Shown here: piece after piece, positions 750 through 13,787 of the stretch
Layout of the letters: each line of letters begins with the position of its first letter
How positions within the stretch are numbered: position 1 is the stretch's first letter
Virus record (IMG/VR): IMGVR_UViG_3300030109_002631
Span: 46,266-66,265 of that record
Source of the DNA: an uncultured virus (IMG/VR IMGVR_UViG_3300030109_002631)
Taxonomy: Duplodnaviria; Heunggongvirae; Uroviricota; Caudoviricetes
Length of the DNA: 20,000 nucleotides
Reading direction: 5' to 3' (one strand)
The notes under the pieces: model-generated
What the model saw: the letters and a program-made list of their open reading frames with translations, nothing else
Databases searched by the model: none
Told to the model about the DNA's origin: nothing
Program-made: the position numbers and the translations under genes

Positions 750-1934
750 ATGAGTAGAGGATACGCAACAGATAGACCATCCCCGTCTCAGTCCGCAACA
801 TGGTATGATGAGTGGACAGAAAGAGAAGGAGGAGATGGTAAGATATGGCACGTGAAGAGAGATTCACGTGGAACTAAGAGATGGACACGTGGAGATGCTC
901 CAGCGTGGACACATGAACTGAGAGTGGAAGACGATAAGCTTATAAAGGACCCTATAGATGGGGATACAGATATGGAAGACAAAACCGAACACAGAGGACT
1001 CGATGACCTATTCGATGTAGGAGCTGAGAGCCCCATGCCAGAAGAGGAACCAACCCCCGAAGAAGTGGTTGTAGAAAAAGACACAGTTATGACTAAGCTG
1101 AAAGGTTCAGTCAATGTGCCAGAAGAATTCAAATTCGCAGACAATATGACTTTCTATACTATGTTGAGAAACATATTTAGAGGTAAGAACATTCTCATCA
1201 CAGGACCATCAGGTTGTGGTAAGAGTAGTCTCGGTAAGATATTAGCTGACATTACAGGTAAAGAGTTTTATTCTTTTAACTTTGGTGATACTATGAATCC
1301 CTCAGCTAAACTATTAGGTGATACTAAGTATAACAAAGAAGATGGAACATGGTTCAAGCCGTCTCGGTTCGTTAAGGCTATACAAGCTGACTCGTTTATT
1401 ATGTTAGATGAGGTAACACGTGACCGAACAGGTGACTTAGCCAATATCTTAATGCCTGTCTTAGATGGACAGAAGTATTTAGCTCTCGATGAGAGTGAGG
1501 ATGCTGACTCAGTTGAGGTTGACGCACGAGCTTTCTTCTTCGCAACTGCGAATATAGGTAGAGAGTATCTCGGTGCATCACATGATTTAGATAGAGCATG
1601 GAAAGATAGATTCACTGGTGGTATATATGAATTAGATTATCTACCTATGAATAAAGAAAAAGAATTGATTATGATTAGAAGCCCTCAGTTAGATGAGTGG
1701 AACGCAGAGAAGATTGTAGACTTTGCAAAGAGAGTGCGTGACTTATACAAGTCCGACGAACTAACAACAGCCGTCTCAACTCGTATGTGTTTAGCGGTAG
1801 CTGAACTCGTAGTAGATGGGATGCCTTTGATAGATGCATTGAAACATACCTGTCTACCATTCTACCCTATTCAGGGTGGTGACGATACTGAGAGAGTAAG
1901 AATAGTTCAAGTCATTCAATCTATGGGTGACTGA
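750..1934 (+). CDS. MoxR/CbbQ/NorQ-family AAA+ ATPase (CobS-like) with N-terminal extension
   Basis: Walker A GPSGCGKS, Walker B IMLDE, sensor FFATAN, DRAWKDRF arginine-finger region, C-terminal VSTR lid; VWA partner nearby. Confidence 0.9.
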   Translation: MSRGYATDRPSPSQSATWYDEWTEREGGDGKIWHVKRDSRGTKRWTRGDAPAWTHELRVEDDKLIKDPIDGDTDMEDKTEHRGLDDLFDVGAESPMPEEEPTPEEVVVEKDTVMTKLKGSVNVPEEFKFADNMTFYTMLRNIFRGKNILITGPSGCGKSSLGKILADITGKEFYSFNFGDTMNPSAKLLGDTKYNKEDGTWFKPSRFVKAIQADSFIMLDEVTRDRTGDLANILMPVLDGQKYLALDESEDADSVEVDARAFFFATANIGREYLGASHDLDRAWKDRFTGGIYELDYLPMNKEKELIMIRSPQLDEWNAEKIVDFAKRVRDLYKSDELTTAVSTRMCLAVAELVVDGMPLIDALKHTCLPFYPIQGGDDTERVRIVQVIQSMGD

Positions 1935-2366
1935 TTGGGTTATCTTAGTTCGATAAAGACAATGGAGTATAAAATGGTAAGACGAAAAAAGAAAGTATTA
2001 AAGAGAAAGCATACATATTGGCATCAGTTAGCTAAAATAATGTTAGGCTTTGGTTTCAAACCAACTATGGTAGGACATATATTAAAAGATGTATTCCCAG
2101 AGACTGAGGTAAATGGCAGACATGTCGGTGCATACAAACGTAGACTGATACAGGATGATGAACTGATTGTGCCAGAGAAAGCAACTATGTCACGCAACGA
2201 AGCTTCTCAACTCGCACCAGAACTGGTCTCAACAGAAGACATGTTCATATACAAGTGCACAGTTGGGTCAGCTAAGAAAAGTTTAGAATGCTTTCAGTTC
2301 AAGTTTAAAGCAGAAGATGTTAGTGCAGTGGAGGAAGTAGAAGAATGGATTACGGCGATTCAGTAG
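1935..2366 (+). CDS. Hypothetical protein, possible helix-turn-helix DNA-binding protein
   Basis: Basic N-terminus followed by an HTH-like helical segment; start codon uncertain. Confidence 0.5.
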   Translation: MGYLSSIKTMEYKMVRRKKKVLKRKHTYWHQLAKIMLGFGFKPTMVGHILKDVFPETEVNGRHVGAYKRRLIQDDELIVPEKATMSRNEASQLAPELVSTEDMFIYKCTVGSAKKSLECFQFKFKAEDVSAVEEVEEWITAIQ

Positions 2367-4474
2367 ACGAGTGGGCTGAGGAAAGCGACGAAGACTACTG
2401 CTATGCATGTGATGACTGGGCTGAGGATGACGGTCATGGTAACTGTAATGAGTGTGGTGTCAGTTTCAAAACTGTAGACCCATTTATCTCACCATCAGTT
2501 GCAAAGACCTACAGTTCACCAGCACCAGCCGTCTCATCTCACGGTGATGTATGGAACAGAGGTTCCGCTTACACATGGGGCAGAGGTGCTTCATGGTGGG
2601 GTGGTTCAGGTTCAATGACCTCATCATGGGGTTGGGGTTCCTCAGTATCACACAGTGACAATACAGCTCGTATGTTAAAACATAAGAGACACTTAGATTC
2701 TCTCTGTAAAGTAGTAGACCCTAACGTAAAACATGTTCTTAACTTCTCAACTGACGGCTCGAATGTATCTAACATGAGTAAAGGAACTATCTATGTTGAT
2801 GGTTCTTTGTTAGAGAGTAATGATGATAAGTTAGATGTAGTAGCAGGTCTCTCAATTCACGAGAAGCTACACTTAGTTCATACTAAACCATTAGTTAAAT
2901 GGGAAAGAGAGTATGCAGATGATAAGATGTTGAGTCACATTGAAGAGAGGCTACTACACAATATTGGTAACATTATTGAAGATGAGTATATAGAGTCTCA
3001 GTTGGCTAAGACACATGCAGGTTATGTAAACTACATCCAGAAAGTGAAAGAACATTACTTTGAGAAACATGGACATAAGATTGAAGAATGTAAAGACCCG
3101 TTCGCAGATGTATTGAACACTCTCTTAGCGATGGTTAGATATCCTCAGTCCATAGATGCTACACGTAAAAGGAAACATGCAAAGCATATTCAGTTCTTCG
3201 GTAGAGCATTGAAGGATGGACTCAAAGACAGAGAAAGTTCTCTTCTTTGTATACGAGTATTGTATGAGTATATGCGTCAGTTAGCTGAACAACATGCAAA
3301 AGAATCTAAAGAGAAAGATGAAGAAAGTATGATGGAAAGAGCAACTGAAAAGTTAGATGAAATCATGGATTCATACAAAGAGAGTGGTGTTGAGAAAGAA
3401 ATATCAGAAAAAGATTTAGATAGGATGCTCGACCAATTACTCAAGGATGAAAAGAAAAGTGCAGAGAGGACAAGTAGGTATGGTGAACAGAGGGTTATCA
3501 GAGATGGTCTCGATTCACATCCCGTTGAACTCACTGACTATGATAAAGCTATGGGTAAGATTGACATGGACTTAGATAAAAAGATTAGAGACTTAGAAGA
3601 CAGTGACTACTCAGAAGAAAAGTGGACTGGTGACAAAGCTCTCGGTTTAAAACAAGGAACTAAAGTCACATGGAAGAACCAACGAAGTCATACAGAAAGA
3701 GAGGCACATCAATATGATGAGGCAATTACATCTATGAAAGCACCTATATCAGGTCTAAAGAGACGCATCTCTCTTTACGGTGACACTAAGGTTCACACTA
3801 TAAGAAATCAACGTAGAGGTAGATTAGATAAAAAGATGTTACATAAGATACCTCTCGGTAGAGATGACTTATTCAAAAACATTGTAGTTGACGAAGACAA
3901 ACCATTAGATGTATGTCTCTTAGTTGACGAGTCAGGTAGTATGGGTTACGGTAAAATGAAGAAAGCGAGAGAGTGTGCTATAGCATTACGAGAAGCACTA
4001 AAAGATAATCAAGCTCTCAACCTATGGGTCTTTGGACACACAGCTGACGGTTATGACTGGGATGATAAGATGGCAACCAATATGTCAGTATACTGGTCAC
4101 CTACTTACCAACAGGATTTGAAAGCTATGGGTGCTATGAGAGCACGTTCAGAGAACAGAGATGGTATGGCTATCTTAGCCTCAGCTGACAAAGTAAAGAG
4201 TGAATCACCATCAACATCAAGTAACAAACTTATGATTGTTATCTCAGATGGTGAACCCTCAGCTGATAAGTATCGTGGCTTTGAAGCAGTAGGTCATGTA
4301 TCAAAAGTAGTAAAGCACCTTGAAGGACAAGGATGGAATATAATTCAGATTGGTATTCGTGGTGCATCTACATCTATCATGGATAGAATGTTTACTAACT
4401 GGATTTATGTAGATGATGAAGCTCAGTTAGCTAACAAAGTAGGAAGAATAGTAAGGAAGGTGATTAAAGTTTGA
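2345..4474 (+). CDS. VWA-domain protein (CobT-like) with HExxH metallopeptidase-like domain and N-terminal zinc ribbon
   Basis: MIDAS DESGSM and ISDGEP; IHEKLH plus NIIEDEYIE; N-terminal CYAC...CNEC. Confidence 0.88.
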   Translation: MDYGDSVDEWAEESDEDYCYACDDWAEDDGHGNCNECGVSFKTVDPFISPSVAKTYSSPAPAVSSHGDVWNRGSAYTWGRGASWWGGSGSMTSSWGWGSSVSHSDNTARMLKHKRHLDSLCKVVDPNVKHVLNFSTDGSNVSNMSKGTIYVDGSLLESNDDKLDVVAGLSIHEKLHLVHTKPLVKWEREYADDKMLSHIEERLLHNIGNIIEDEYIESQLAKTHAGYVNYIQKVKEHYFEKHGHKIEECKDPFADVLNTLLAMVRYPQSIDATRKRKHAKHIQFFGRALKDGLKDRESSLLCIRVLYEYMRQLAEQHAKESKEKDEESMMERATEKLDEIMDSYKESGVEKEISEKDLDRMLDQLLKDEKKSAERTSRYGEQRVIRDGLDSHPVELTDYDKAMGKIDMDLDKKIRDLEDSDYSEEKWTGDKALGLKQGTKVTWKNQRSHTEREAHQYDEAITSMKAPISGLKRRISLYGDTKVHTIRNQRRGRLDKKMLHKIPLGRDDLFKNIVVDEDKPLDVCLLVDESGSMGYGKMKKARECAIALREALKDNQALNLWVFGHTADGYDWDDKMATNMSVYWSPTYQQDLKAMGAMRARSENRDGMAILASADKVKSESPSTSSNKLMIVISDGEPSADKYRGFEAVGHVSKVVKHLEGQGWNIIQIGIRGASTSIMDRMFTNWIYVDDEAQLANKVGRIVRKVIKV

Positions 4475-4572
4475 ATTGGAAAGCCCCACCACATTTAGAT
4501 GAAGCAGGTTGGTATCTACTACTGGTTTGCTTTATGGTATTGTGGATGTGGATAATCATGTTCTTTCATTAG
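4471..4572 (+). CDS. 33-aa single-pass membrane microprotein (not in ORF track)
   Basis: TTG start overlapping the VWA stop, GGTGA SD upstream; MNWKAPPHLDEAGWYLLLVCFMVLWMWIIMFFH. Confidence 0.55.
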   Translation: MNWKAPPHLDEAGWYLLLVCFMVLWMWIIMFFH

Positions 4573-4582
4573 CAGGGTGACA

Positions 4583-4651
4583 GGGAATAAGTTGAGAACC
4601 TTTTACTTCTTAGTTTCGGTCGGTTTAGCTCATATCTCTCGGCTTGTTCCC
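4583..4651 (+). ncRNA. 15-bp RNA stem with 39-nt U-rich loop (5' module of, or partner to, the large ncRNA)
   Basis: GGGAATAAGTTGAGA (4583-4597) pairs fully with TCTCGGCTTGTTCCC (4637-4651) using three G-U pairs, which work only on the + strand RNA. Confidence 0.65.
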
Positions 4652-4659
4652 CACTATAC

Positions 4660-5124
4660 GCAACGAAGACTTTGAATATTGAACTCGGAATAGATAAAGA
4701 TAAGTGATAACAGGAAGGCCACGCTTAGCCTAATCATAATGGCGGTAGTAGGACTCGAACACTTATCCTCAGTTAGGAAGCACCTCGCTTCGGAACCTTG
4801 AAAAACAGGAACTAAGCAGTGAGGTTCCCTATACTGAGTTGTATAACCCCTGTAATTGTATCGTGACTCTTTTGTCAGATGACTTTGGTTGGTTATACAA
4901 AGAAAGTCCACCTTGAGACCACGTTAAGCGAACCTCAGACAGAGCATAATGTTTTAAACTAATTGTTCTATAGCAGGTAATACCTTTTTGGGTCGGTATT
5001 GTGAAGAGAACCCAGTTGGTCGGGTTAGTGACTAAATATCTCAATGGGAGTGACACGTTCACTGATTATCAGCACACGTATTCACACACCATAAACTGAG
5101 AGCCATTCTCTCTTCGTTGCACCA
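4660..5124 (+). ncRNA. Large structured non-coding RNA of unknown class (about 460 nt; about 540 nt including the upstream hairpin)
   Basis: Terminal helix 4660-4669/5111-5120 followed by ACCA. Further helices: 4673-4679/5078-5084, 4699-4706/4760-4767, 4768-4773/4833-4838, 4777-4781/4787-4791, 4792-4800/4820-4828, 4839-4848/4891-4900, 4913-4918/5039-5044, 4941-4946/4964-4969, 4978-4984/4995-5001, 5009-5013/5022-5026. No + strand ORF of 60 aa or more in an otherwise densely coding window. Confidence 0.75.
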
Positions 5125-5138
5125 AAAGCTTTATATAG
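5124..5138 (+). promoter_or_regulatory. Archaeal BRE/TATA promoter
   Basis: AAAAGCTTTATATAG, a copy of the repeated motif, upstream of ORF 5182. Confidence 0.75.
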
Positions 5139-5181
5139 ATATTTGAAATATATTGAATTATAATAACAAGGAATTGAAAAT

Positions 5182-5619
5182 ATGCAAACATTTCTACCAA
5201 CAAAAAACTTTAGAACATCAGCCAAACTTTTAGATTACCGTCGTCTCGGTAAGCAAAGAGTAGAAGGGCTTCAGCTCATCAACTCTCTCAGTCCAGACTA
5301 CGATAAGAAAGGTTGGCTTAACCACCCAGCACGTTTAATGTGGGTTGGTTATGAGAATGCACTCAAACATTATACTAACTGTATGATAGAAGAGTGGGTG
5401 GCACGTGGTTATAACAACACGATGTCATTGTATGAAATAGAAAAGCCGATAGTATTCCCTCAGTGGTTAGGCTATCCAGAACTGCACAAGTCACATCGAA
5501 TAAACCTATTACGTAAGGATTACGACTTTTATAAACAGCACTTCGATGACGATGCACAAATGGACCTCGCAATCATAAACGAGTATGAATACTATTGGCC
5601 ACCGGAGAAAGAAAAATGA
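5182..5619 (+). CDS. Pyrimidine dimer DNA glycosylase family protein (DenV/MSMEG_6728-like)
   Basis: MQTFLP...LDYRRLGKQRVE...GWLNHPA...PQWLG...HKSHR.NLLRKD...YYWP signature. Confidence 0.88.
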   Translation: MQTFLPTKNFRTSAKLLDYRRLGKQRVEGLQLINSLSPDYDKKGWLNHPARLMWVGYENALKHYTNCMIEEWVARGYNNTMSLYEIEKPIVFPQWLGYPELHKSHRINLLRKDYDFYKQHFDDDAQMDLAIINEYEYYWPPEKEK

Positions 5620-7390: not shown

Positions 7391-7539
7391 CAATAACAGA
7401 CTGGCTACTGTTCATAGCAGTAATAGATGGACCCTTAATAGGATTTATCTATCTCATTTGGCAGAAGCTGAAAAGTGAAATGAAAAGTAAAAAGCTATTG
7501 CAAAGAATGGCTGAAGAAAGAGGAATGACAAAAGAATGA
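7387..7539 (+). CDS. 50-aa membrane microprotein (not in ORF track)
   Basis: ATGA overlaps at both ends; N-terminal hydrophobic helix WLLFIAVIDGPLIGFIYLIW. Confidence 0.6.
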   Translation: MTITDWLLFIAVIDGPLIGFIYLIWQKLKSEMKSKKLLQRMAEERGMTKE

Positions 7540-8138
7540 AAGAGATAATGGAAAAATATAGCACCACATTTTTTGAAGCGATGGATACATGGCCCGATGA
7601 ACTCAAAGAAGATATATACAAGTTATATGCTTACTTAAGAGTATGTGATGAAATGGTAGAAGGAGCTGAGTTAGCTGACTTCACACATTGGAGAGAAGTA
7701 ATAGAACAATTCTATGAAGTAAGTGATAAGTATCAGTTCAAGGGTGAATGGTTAGCAGATTTTCATTTAGCTATGTATACTGATTTAGTTAAGAAAGAAC
7801 ATACTGTGAAGTCTATGCTTGAGTATTGTAAAGGTTCAGCTGAGTCAGTAGGTGTAATGATGGCATCTATATTAGGCTGTGACCCACGAGCTGAGAGACA
7901 TGCAAGGGCTTTAGGTAGAGCATATCAAATAATAAACTTTGTTAGAGACTATGAAGAAGATATAGCTAATGGTTACCATTATATTACTGATGATTTTAAT
8001 TTATATATTAAATTATTTATGGAAGATTTGCAGATAGGTGTAGAAGGATTACACTTCATACCTGAAGACTTACGTGGTCCTATACTACATGCTAATCAAT
8101 CATACATAGAGGTGGCACGTGAAGCCAACCTACTATAA
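7536..8138 (+). CDS. Squalene/phytoene synthase family protein (compact CrtB-like)
   Basis: YSTTF, LYAYLRVCDEMVE, YCKGSAESVGVM, LGRAYQIINFVRDYEED motifs. Confidence 0.85.
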   Translation: MKEIMEKYSTTFFEAMDTWPDELKEDIYKLYAYLRVCDEMVEGAELADFTHWREVIEQFYEVSDKYQFKGEWLADFHLAMYTDLVKKEHTVKSMLEYCKGSAESVGVMMASILGCDPRAERHARALGRAYQIINFVRDYEEDIANGYHYITDDFNLYIKLFMEDLQIGVEGLHFIPEDLRGPILHANQSYIEVAREANLL

Positions 8139-12054: not shown

Positions 12055-13513
12055 ACTGCATGACCTATTAAGGTATTTCCATAATGCCCGTAAGAGTGAT
12101 GGCACTCTGGCTCCTATATTAGGAGAAGACTCTGTAGCTCTCACTTCAGCATTAGCTTATTTGTTAGAAGATAATAACTTTTGTATCAAAGCTTATTCAG
12201 GAACAGGTAAGACAGTTATCATGGATGCTGTCAAAATGTTACTTCCTGAAGAGTGGTATTATACAATGGAACATTTATCTGAGACTGCTATATGGTATGA
12301 CAAAACAGATATAAATATGTCTCGTTTTGTATTTATACCTGAAGCACAAAAGCTACCTGAAGGGGTTATGGAGATAATTAAAACATGGGCTGATGATAGA
12401 ACAGCTAATCGTAAGGTGACCGATGTCACTACTAAGACAGCACGAGCGCAGAACTTATATAAGAAATTTGTTTTCATGTGTGTAGCAGTAGAAAACGATA
12501 AAGGTTCAGCTTACTTTGATGCTGAGTTAGAACGTCGATGTATGATTATGCATACTAATCCCACAGTAGAACAAACTGAGAGAGTATTGAGATACAAGCT
12601 GATGCATTCAGCTCTTCCTAAAACATCTATTACCAATATGGATGAGGATGAAATAAACAAACTGAAAGAACACATAAAAGATTGTATATCAGAAAAGGAT
12701 GATGATAGGGGAACTGTTATTAAGAATCCCTGTGCTCCCTTTTTGATTGATGCTATTCCAAGTGCGTTCCCTGTTTCACGTTCTAAAGTTCAATATCTAT
12801 TGAGACTTGTGAATGCAGTTGCACGTTTCTATCCACAGGAATTAACCAGAGTAGATAAAGATGGAGTTCACTATGGCTTAGTATCACCTAAGCATAACTG
12901 GTTAGCTCTTAGAATATATCTTCAGTCATTCGTAGAAGAGTGTCTACACATGCCAAGTCATGGAACAGATATATTAAAACTATTCCCTGAATCCAGACTG
13001 GATAGATTTGGTTTTGCAGATAGTGATACAGTCAAAATGTCAGAAGCAGAAATCAAGAAAGCTGCGAAGGCTGCTGGTTTACCCTTCACTAAACTGAGAC
13101 CCGTTATATCAGGACTACTGATGACAGGGTTCTTAGAAAGTGAAGAAGATGGAAAAAGAATCTTATATTATAAGAGTCCTCTTTTGACATCACCTCAGTC
13201 TAAAATAAAATGGAGTGATTTGATTGACAACACGAAAGAGTTTATACGAGAGAACTGGCCTGAAGTGGCTGACGAATACATTAGGAGCAGTTGTAGCCGT
13301 ATCCAAATTGTTGACCCGATTAACGGGAACAACATTGAACTGGGTGCGGGAGCAGAGAGAGCAACGGAAGTAGATGACGCTGAATATCCTTCAGTGTTTA
13401 AGTCTGCTAAAGATGCAAAGATTAAGGACTATGAGTCCTTTCTATTAAAAGCAGAAGGAGATTACAATGAAGAAGAAGACGAAGCCGTCAGAGTATTTTA
13501 CGAAGAAGGTTAA
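12038..13513 (+). CDS. AAA+ ATPase, putative replicative helicase, with C-terminal winged-helix-like domain
   Basis: Walker A AYSGTGKT, degenerate Walker B FVFIPE, arginine finger ELERR, C-terminal LRPVISGLLMTGFLE helix. Confidence 0.62.
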   Translation: MKKKFELHDLLRYFHNARKSDGTLAPILGEDSVALTSALAYLLEDNNFCIKAYSGTGKTVIMDAVKMLLPEEWYYTMEHLSETAIWYDKTDINMSRFVFIPEAQKLPEGVMEIIKTWADDRTANRKVTDVTTKTARAQNLYKKFVFMCVAVENDKGSAYFDAELERRCMIMHTNPTVEQTERVLRYKLMHSALPKTSITNMDEDEINKLKEHIKDCISEKDDDRGTVIKNPCAPFLIDAIPSAFPVSRSKVQYLLRLVNAVARFYPQELTRVDKDGVHYGLVSPKHNWLALRIYLQSFVEECLHMPSHGTDILKLFPESRLDRFGFADSDTVKMSEAEIKKAAKAAGLPFTKLRPVISGLLMTGFLESEEDGKRILYYKSPLLTSPQSKIKWSDLIDNTKEFIRENWPEVADEYIRSSCSRIQIVDPINGNNIELGAGAERATEVDDAEYPSVFKSAKDAKIKDYESFLLKAEGDYNEEEDEAVRVFYEEG

Positions 13514-13787
13514 ACTACCTACCAAAGACGAACAATTCGCAGTTGTTCGAGAGATGTCTGGAGGTTCACGTCTTCTCGCTATGTGTGAAGATAACCAAAT
13601 GAGAATGGTTAGAATCGGTGGTAAGTTTAAGAAAAGAATGTGGGTCCGAGTAGATGATTTAATATTAATCAAACCTTGGACCGTTCAGTCTGATTCAAGA
13701 GCAGACTTAGTTTATCGCTATCTCCCAAATGAGAGGAATTGGATTCTCAGAAGAGACATAATACCAGAGGAGTTGAATATATGGTAA
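13467..13787 (+). CDS. eif1a: Archaeal translation initiation factor 1A (aIF-1A)
   Basis: VKLP...EQFAVV.EM.GGSRL...CED...RMVRI.GKFKKRMWVR..D.I.IKPW..QSD..ADLVYRY...WI, matching the aIF-1A/eIF1A OB-fold signature. Confidence 0.93.
   Translation: MKKKTKPSEYFTKKVKLPTKDEQFAVVREMSGGSRLLAMCEDNQMRMVRIGGKFKKRMWVRVDDLILIKPWTVQSDSRADLVYRYLPNERNWILRRDIIPEELNIW

Follow-up and report, generated by a model that had tools for sequence, protein, structure and literature searches.

A viral RNA element of a probably archaeal virus joins a constant frame to a variable payload of recurring structured modules

Genomic setting of the element

The window, the whole 20,000-nt stretch of DNA analysed here, makes up the terminal 20 kb of a virus record 66,265 nt long, and the presence of portal, terminase and capsid genes identified the virus as tailed. 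Pfam searches also placed genes for PolB, aIF1A, a CbbQ-type ATPase, a CobT-like vWA protein and a glycosyltransferase in its genome, and this content agrees with the list for magrovirus group E, the Krittikaviridae, in PMC11706807. By gene content only, the virus fits the Krittikaviridae. Gene content likewise points to Marine Group II archaea as its probable hosts, so the initial annotation of this DNA was on sound ground in speaking of an archaeal virus.

The element described here extends over about positions 4576–5120 and lies in a stretch (4573–5181) which, as the initial annotation had recognised, is free of + strand ORFs of at least 50 aa (Table 1). Its start lies 85 nt ahead of the start at 4660 given in that annotation, from which the hairpin at 4576–4655, a 33-codon ORF at 4471–4572 and the modular variation were absent. 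The vWA gene is separated from the RNA by other genes in L030, L035, L037 and L113, and its product had no match to the TROVE domain in Pfam. Short ORFs similar to the 33-codon ORF precede the RNA in many homologs, not in all, and the ORF had no match among PHROGs. A similar short ORF was also seen in L030 and L035, where other genes split it from the RNA. The block that abuts the 3′ end of the RNA was the commonest 9-mer block shared among the homologs (31/48) and is one which, from general knowledge of archaeal promoters, we take to be an archaeal-type BRE and TATA box.

Table 1. Features of the element and its surroundings (window coordinates).
Feature	Position	Strand	Support
MoxR/CbbQ-type AAA ATPase gene, upstream operon	750..1934	+	Pfam AAA_5, CbbQ_C
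CobT-like vWA protein gene, usual upstream neighbour of the RNA	2345..4474	+	Pfam VWA; synteny
33-codon hydrophobic ORF, directly 5′ of the RNA, overlapping the vWA stop	4471..4572	+	
Hairpin A (frame part A), 4-bp base and long stem	4576..4655	+	
P1, perfect 10-bp inverted repeat	4660-4669/5111-5120	+	Compensatory columns in homologs
P2	4674-4676/5106-5108	+	Homolog alignment
Rod internal loop, conserved 5′ strand and 3′ strand	4677-4683 (5′), 5101-5105 (3′)	+	
P3	4684-4688/5096-5100	+	Homolog alignment
Payload block 1, three nested modules a, b, c	4699..4767	+	
Module a	4703-4712/4758-4767	+	9/52 elements, chance 0.0
Module b	4716-4724/4745-4755	+	18/52 elements, chance 0.4
Module c, hairpin	4725-4744	+	24/52 elements, chance 1.2
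Payload block 2, module d with module e nested inside	4768..4838	+	
Module d helix	4782-4787/4820-4825	+	95.8% paired; one pair with double change in 3/8
Module e	~4792-4813	+	3/52 elements, far above chance
Payload block 3, module f, hairpin with internal loop and closing 10-bp helix	4839..4900	+	
Payload block 4, composite module g+h, junction with hairpin	4905..5034	+	
Payload block 5, hairpin with little sharing and uncertain boundaries	5046..5090	+	Folds; short pieces shared with L044
Presumed archaeal-type BRE + TATA box of next transcript, abutting RNA 3′ end	5121..5137	+	
Pyrimidine dimer DNA glycosylase gene, next downstream in only a subset of homologs	5182..5619	+	Pfam Pyr_excise; synteny

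Homologs of the element

Flanking proteins brought 119 loci into the homolog collection. Of the 120 records (window included), 83 had the 5′ anchor and the remaining 37 were either truncated or variant at the start. Eight variant-start elements were added by hand, which brought the distinct complete elements to 63 and the non-redundant ones among them to 49, and removal of one truncated row (L021) left the 48 elements analysed; module counts were made on these 48 together with L004, L030, L035 and L037 (52 elements). The non-redundant elements (n = 49) were 127–839 nt long, promoter counted in, and had a common plan in which a constant frame holds a variable payload of near zero to ~650 nt. 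The initial annotation had envisaged a single ornate fold of large size, comparable to ROOL or GOLLD, a picture that this range of lengths does not support, since the smallest homologs are without the whole middle.

Each record carried one copy of the element. A model of the 5′ part of the RNA matched once in each of 22 of the 46 sources, among them L164 and three distant viruses; the 24 sources without a match included the rest of the virus's own genome, two rRNA control loci and many loci too short for the site. The same model (R1) had no match in G010 and only one at E = 0.194 in G011, and because the G010 genome is 87% complete the RNA may be missing from some members of the virus group. 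Stray module copies were not found elsewhere in the virus's own genome (55 matches within the element and 2 weak matches beyond it). When one module was searched for as a pattern, 31 stretches were returned, 5 of which were inside such elements (by eye) and the remainder chance-like.

The frame consists of hairpin A and a closing rod

Hairpin A has a 3-nt bulge at 4580–4582 and a large U-rich loop at ~4598–4636. In an alignment of 28 sequences 98.4% of 499 cells were paired, compared to 32–49% in slid controls, and double changes were seen at 11 of 18 pairs, a score that none of 500 shuffles reached. One U-G pair was invariant (28/28), and changes from A-U to G-U were frequent. The second part of the frame is an irregular rod, P1-P2-P3, that encloses the payload. 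P1 had already been proposed as a perfect 10-bp closing helix, which it is, whereas the second helix proposed with it (4673–4679/5078–5084) gives way in the homologs to P2 and P3. The three columns of P2 were paired in 33, 35 and 33 of 36 rows with 2–4 pair types. The covariation found in hairpin A and the rod, together with the lack of any Rfam match near a cut-off, supports the earlier view of a functional structured RNA outside Rfam, and we are highly confident that the stretch is a real structured RNA.

L032, L111, L048 and L022 carry extra hairpins in the loop of hairpin A or between hairpin A and P1, and the frame thus has more than one insertion point. In L006 and L096 the payload is near-absent, with only a few bases inside P3. 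L164 (~1230–1900, minus strand) was a permuted element with hairpin A after the payload domain and the promoter absent behind it. Two candidate features of the frame were rejected: a bulge-helix-bulge site in hairpin A, since there is only one bulge, and a tRNA-like 3′ end as a rule, since the four bases 3′ of P1 vary.

The loop of hairpin A bears on one possible function of the RNA, that of an antisense regulator whose U-rich loop pairs with host or viral mRNAs at the ribosome-binding site and start codon and whose payload is accessory. By eye, and uncounted, the loop in many members reads as the complement of a start codon followed by that of a Shine-Dalgarno sequence, including in the most distant members (L030, L035, L036, L113, L116 and L117). 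However, no viral start region clearly beat shuffled loops in 6 genomes, and early regions with short ORFs were also null, with the loop mis-cut for G006 and partly for G003. The exact pattern, run over 5 records, matched mostly the element's own opposite strand, and the shortest members are without most of the loop. We consider an antisense role improbable.

The payload is built from recurring modules

The payload is made up of short recurring motifs, mostly two-stranded internal loops, along with small junctions and one likely pseudoknot. We defined 23 motifs by hand, each recurring in 2 to 30 of 55 elements. In most modules a helix of free sequence, which can host another module, is flanked by two constant strands, and in homolog alignments the motif strands were constant while the helices between them varied freely. 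Modules were gained, lost, reordered, nested and circularly permuted across homologs, such that the eight modules of the window occurred in 33 ordered combinations in 52 elements.

Counts of modules a, b, c, e, g and h in these 52 elements were far above chance; those of modules d (11 vs. 6.0 expected) and f (15 vs. 10.9 expected) were near chance. Only 4 of 28 module pairs co-occurred at p < 0.05, namely g and h, which are one module, and three pairs that involve d or f, with their near-chance counts. Module f had exact stretches in common with L061, L112 and L109.

The three abutting domains previously drawn from the fold of the single sequence (4699–4767, 4768–4838 and 4839–4900) coincide with module blocks common to the homologs, and the helix that closes the third (4839–4848/4891–4900) is, as described, a perfect 10-bp inverted repeat. 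Other details of that fold had to be revised. The three-way junction assigned to the middle domain fails because one of its strands (4792–4800) belongs to module e and is missing in 6 of 8 aligned homologs, the kept helix being that of module d. The 3′ domain, for which closure at 4913–4918/5039–5044 had been proposed, is closed in homologs at ~4905–4908/5031–5034 (read by eye).

Block 4 is circularly permuted relative to other homologs. Among 43 elements, 15 had both g and h, 1 had g alone, 5 had h alone and 22 had neither; the order was g-h in 7 and h-g in 9. Modules g and h are one fold opened at two different helices, and the flip in their order shows that this fold is self-contained. The hairpin loop of block 4 (~4986–4995) probably pairs with ~5010–5014 as a pseudoknot. 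Three pair types were found at one position, and partner swaps were as good in 0 of 2000 trials and loop shuffles in 11 of 2000, a test made on the 17 of 37 rows that passed the filter, three of which are not this module. The pairing was not significant on a MAFFT alignment (38/500 shuffles as high), in which 5 of 16 rows were one column out of register.

Possible exchange of modules between viruses

Relatedness of the viruses was gauged by their vWA proteins, with 328 pairs below 56% identity. Among these pairs, exact stretches of up to 63, 43 and 38 nt were shared in the payload by viruses with vWA proteins about 50% identical, compared to up to 40 nt in the vWA genes, which are several times longer. 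Shared stretches of at least 20 nt were found in 127 pairs for the vWA genes vs. 35 for the RNA. The tail of the shared-stretch distribution suggests, without proving, that modules are exchanged between distant viruses.

Such a payload could also be close to neutral, with a small functional frame that tolerates insertions and functionless structured cassettes that pile up in it by recombination. Payload-free members exist, and two 5-mers of the P3-type joining helix were enriched in the payload (46 vs. 12.7 and 51 vs. 20.4 expected) and could thereby seed recombination. On the other hand, unpaired motif strands are kept while helices covary, the modules occur nowhere else in the genome, and insertions retain their pairing (family fold z in the next section). 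Taken together, near-neutral accumulation appears very improbable.

Folding, strand and transcription

Folding energies were compared to those of shuffled sequences. The window alone gave z = −2.16 on the + strand (4/100 shuffles as stable) and z = −2.93 on the − strand (0/100), and the stretch 4575–5124 gave z = −2.15. As the window alone folds only modestly better than shuffles, the case rests on the homologs, for which the median z was −3.65 (28 of the 48 elements tested, with 12–20 shuffles each). Stability above shuffled controls, which the initial annotation had named as a test, was weak for the single sequence and was borne out by the family.

Since the − strand of the window folds slightly better than the + strand, and contigs from RNA libraries can derive from DNA, the structure might work as single-stranded DNA, as an origin or recombination site, and not as RNA. 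Against this, the + strand was the more stable in 40 of 48 homologs, and hairpin A has its invariant U-G pair and frequent A-U to G-U changes, all of which also agrees with the + strand preference noted previously from G-U pairs. We find a DNA role hardly credible.

Part of the stretch was present in 13 sequencing runs from 7 studies, 12 of them RNA libraries. Identical contigs within the stretch were present in all 4 runs examined (4834–5044, 4806–5055, 4673–4910 and 4857–5040), these runs having been preselected for containing the stretch at a share of at least 0.2. These data weakly indicate that the RNA is transcribed; contigs carry no strand, ends or level. The X1 contigs also cover many genes, and hairpin A was covered by none among the contigs listed. 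No TATA-like box was seen on inspection of the sequence just 5′ of hairpin A, from which we infer that the RNA is co-transcribed with the upstream operon.

Comparison with known RNAs

An Rfam search of the window, 8 loci and 2 single elements gave no match near any cut-off, and a search of the two elements only, with E up to 10, returned only weak rows for snoRNA, CRISPR repeats and Ocean-VII. No module matched a riboswitch aptamer in Rfam (two elements alone, eight loci), and no match to RNase P RNA, group I or II introns, small ribozymes, SRP RNA or tmRNA was obtained with Rfam or ARAGORN. Resemblances to RNase P, the group I intron, twister, c-di-AMP and guanidine-III were dropped, as no model matched. 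ARAGORN found 0 tRNA and 0 tmRNA genes in the window, and blastn of the element or its homologs against phages and plasmids gave nothing or short matches (E 0.06–0.7).

Bacterial Y RNAs, which act with Ro60, have a long terminal stem, a variable module and a vWA-domain gene beside them. The element is similar in having a terminal stem, a variable part and a vWA-gene neighbour, but that neighbour lacks a TROVE match and the element has no Rfam match to Y RNA.

ROOL and GOLLD have a large fixed fold with variable linkers (PMC5737381; 10.1101/2024.12.08.627333); the linker sits inside a cage and, in GOLLD, sometimes contains tRNAs, according to the latter. Like them, the element is a large structured RNA of prokaryotic viruses with a conserved part and a variable one. 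In contrast to them, its conserved part measures ~110–150 nt and its bulk is variable, with recurring modules in free order; it lacks their fixed multi-junction fold of about 580 nt or more, matches no Rfam family, has no tRNA in the window and probably belongs to an archaeal host. ROOL and GOLLD often have tRNA genes nearby; in the rest of this genome only manA reached a gathering score, so that proximity to a tRNA was likewise not seen.

The manA RNA (RF01745) scored 67.1 bits at G000:42798-42969 (L126:4798-4969), outside the window and ~8 kb upstream of the element, with a TATA-like box about 20 nt ahead of it. All 5 related virus records contained it, 4 of them with scores over the cut-off, and 0 of 14 control genomes did. 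Both RNAs thus occur in a marine virus and in one genome; manA, however, is a separate locus of fixed length near 175–185 nt, and the element gave no RF01745 match. Published manA RNAs are placed in Photobacterium and cyanophages in 10.64898/2026.07.01.735769, and as this virus is probably archaeal the setting is new.

Cage formation by manA (reported in the same text, 10.64898/2026.07.01.735769) raises the question of whether the element is itself an RNA-only assembly like ROOL, GOLLD and manA, with a frame that oligomerises into a cage or filament and modules that are docking parts or passive cargo. The variable linker inside ROOL and GOLLD cages (10.1101/2024.12.08.627333) and the presence of manA in this genome and its relatives favour this, and pairing between the hairpin A loop and the rod internal loop (5101–5105) is possible (by eye, with mixed support and a mismatch in the window). 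A fixed cage, however, would need fixed parts; co-occurrence was confined to 4 of 28 module pairs, and the frame alone amounts to about 110 nt. We regard such an assembly as unlikely, while giving it some weight.

No comparable RNA was found in the mostly open-access main texts searched; the 224-motif files of PMC5737381 could list single modules.

A possible function in binding host factors

Constant unpaired strands carried on free helices, independent assortment and permutation favour separate binding sites. The reading that we put forward, at a little short of even chances, is that the RNA is a viral noncoding chassis that displays exchangeable small binding modules, acting as decoys or aptamers for host factors. 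The RNA would form the end or a middle part of the transcript of an early operon, and the frame would protect the ends of the RNA. Each module would fold alone and bind one host partner, which would be soaked up during infection; candidate partners are an RNA-binding protein, a nuclease or defence sensor, or a small signal molecule. Viruses would swap modules by recombination to suit the host, as happens at anti-defence hotspots. We infer the step from modules to host partners. The payload-free members L006 and L096 indicate that the frame has a job of its own, which a decoy function leaves unexplained.

More tentatively, the RNA may be a natural combinatorial device. Its chassis would then carry a library, traded among viruses, of about twenty or more aptamers or decoys that fold independently and each have a different host target. 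In that case every module would represent a natural RNA fold not seen before, and the chassis would be the RNA equivalent of a phage anti-defence hotspot.

Phage pseudo-ToxI provides a precedent for a viral RNA decoy. The nearest functional precedent is that of the Racrs, which are viral RNA decoys (PMC10651486). In both, a virus RNA mimics a host RNA ligand to disarm a defence, and by analogy this is the likely working principle of the element. These precedents are nonetheless short units of a single kind copied from a known host repeat, whereas the element is one long RNA with many unrelated modules. A Racr-type mimic of a solitary CRISPR repeat was not found, the only match being one of 15 bits on the opposite strand vs. 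a cut-off of 35.

In a narrow form of the decoy reading, the modules mimic rRNA or tRNA and titrate ribosomal proteins or translation-targeting nucleases. Segments exceeded z = 2.5 against E. coli and Halomicrobium rRNA in 11 of 416 sense tests vs. 2 of 416 antisense tests, with the top match at E. coli 16S 1434–1470 (z 5.9). One module aligned gap-free to E. coli 23S near 730–765, the first 11 nt of some elements are a word in both 23S rRNAs tested, and the virus encodes its own aIF1A. However, there was no k-mer excess against E. coli rRNA, that against the Halomicrobium operon amounted to only about 2.5 sd, models of rRNA and tRNA had no match, and a compositional strand bias could yield the sense excess. 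Mimicry of this kind therefore has a low probability in our view.

The large RNAs known from prokaryotic viruses each keep a single conserved fold, whereas this element shows modular RNA evolution directly, in that its parts are gained or lost, nest, permute and apparently pass from one virus to another. The modules offer a collection of small natural motifs, each of which can be tested for its ligand, and the tolerant frame could serve as a scaffold for aptamer display. If the modules are decoys, they would be pointers to the factors that Marine Group II archaea, an abundant and uncultured group, use in defence or regulation.

Other features of the virus genomes

The virus-encoded archaeal initiation factor 1A lies at 13467–13787 of the window, and 439 relatives were found. 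A genome scan gave one contig, in a Maricaulis MAG (L120), which encodes an aIF1A that is 67% identical and is probably a viral piece placed in the wrong bin. A squalene/phytoene synthase-like gene (window 7536–8138, Pfam) is syntenic in most homologs, and a 1439-aa collagen-repeat protein (L125:514-4833) adjoins the capsid gene. The early region at L126:2500-7430 contains repeated promoter-like units of several families, in 4–7 copies, with TATA-like cores.
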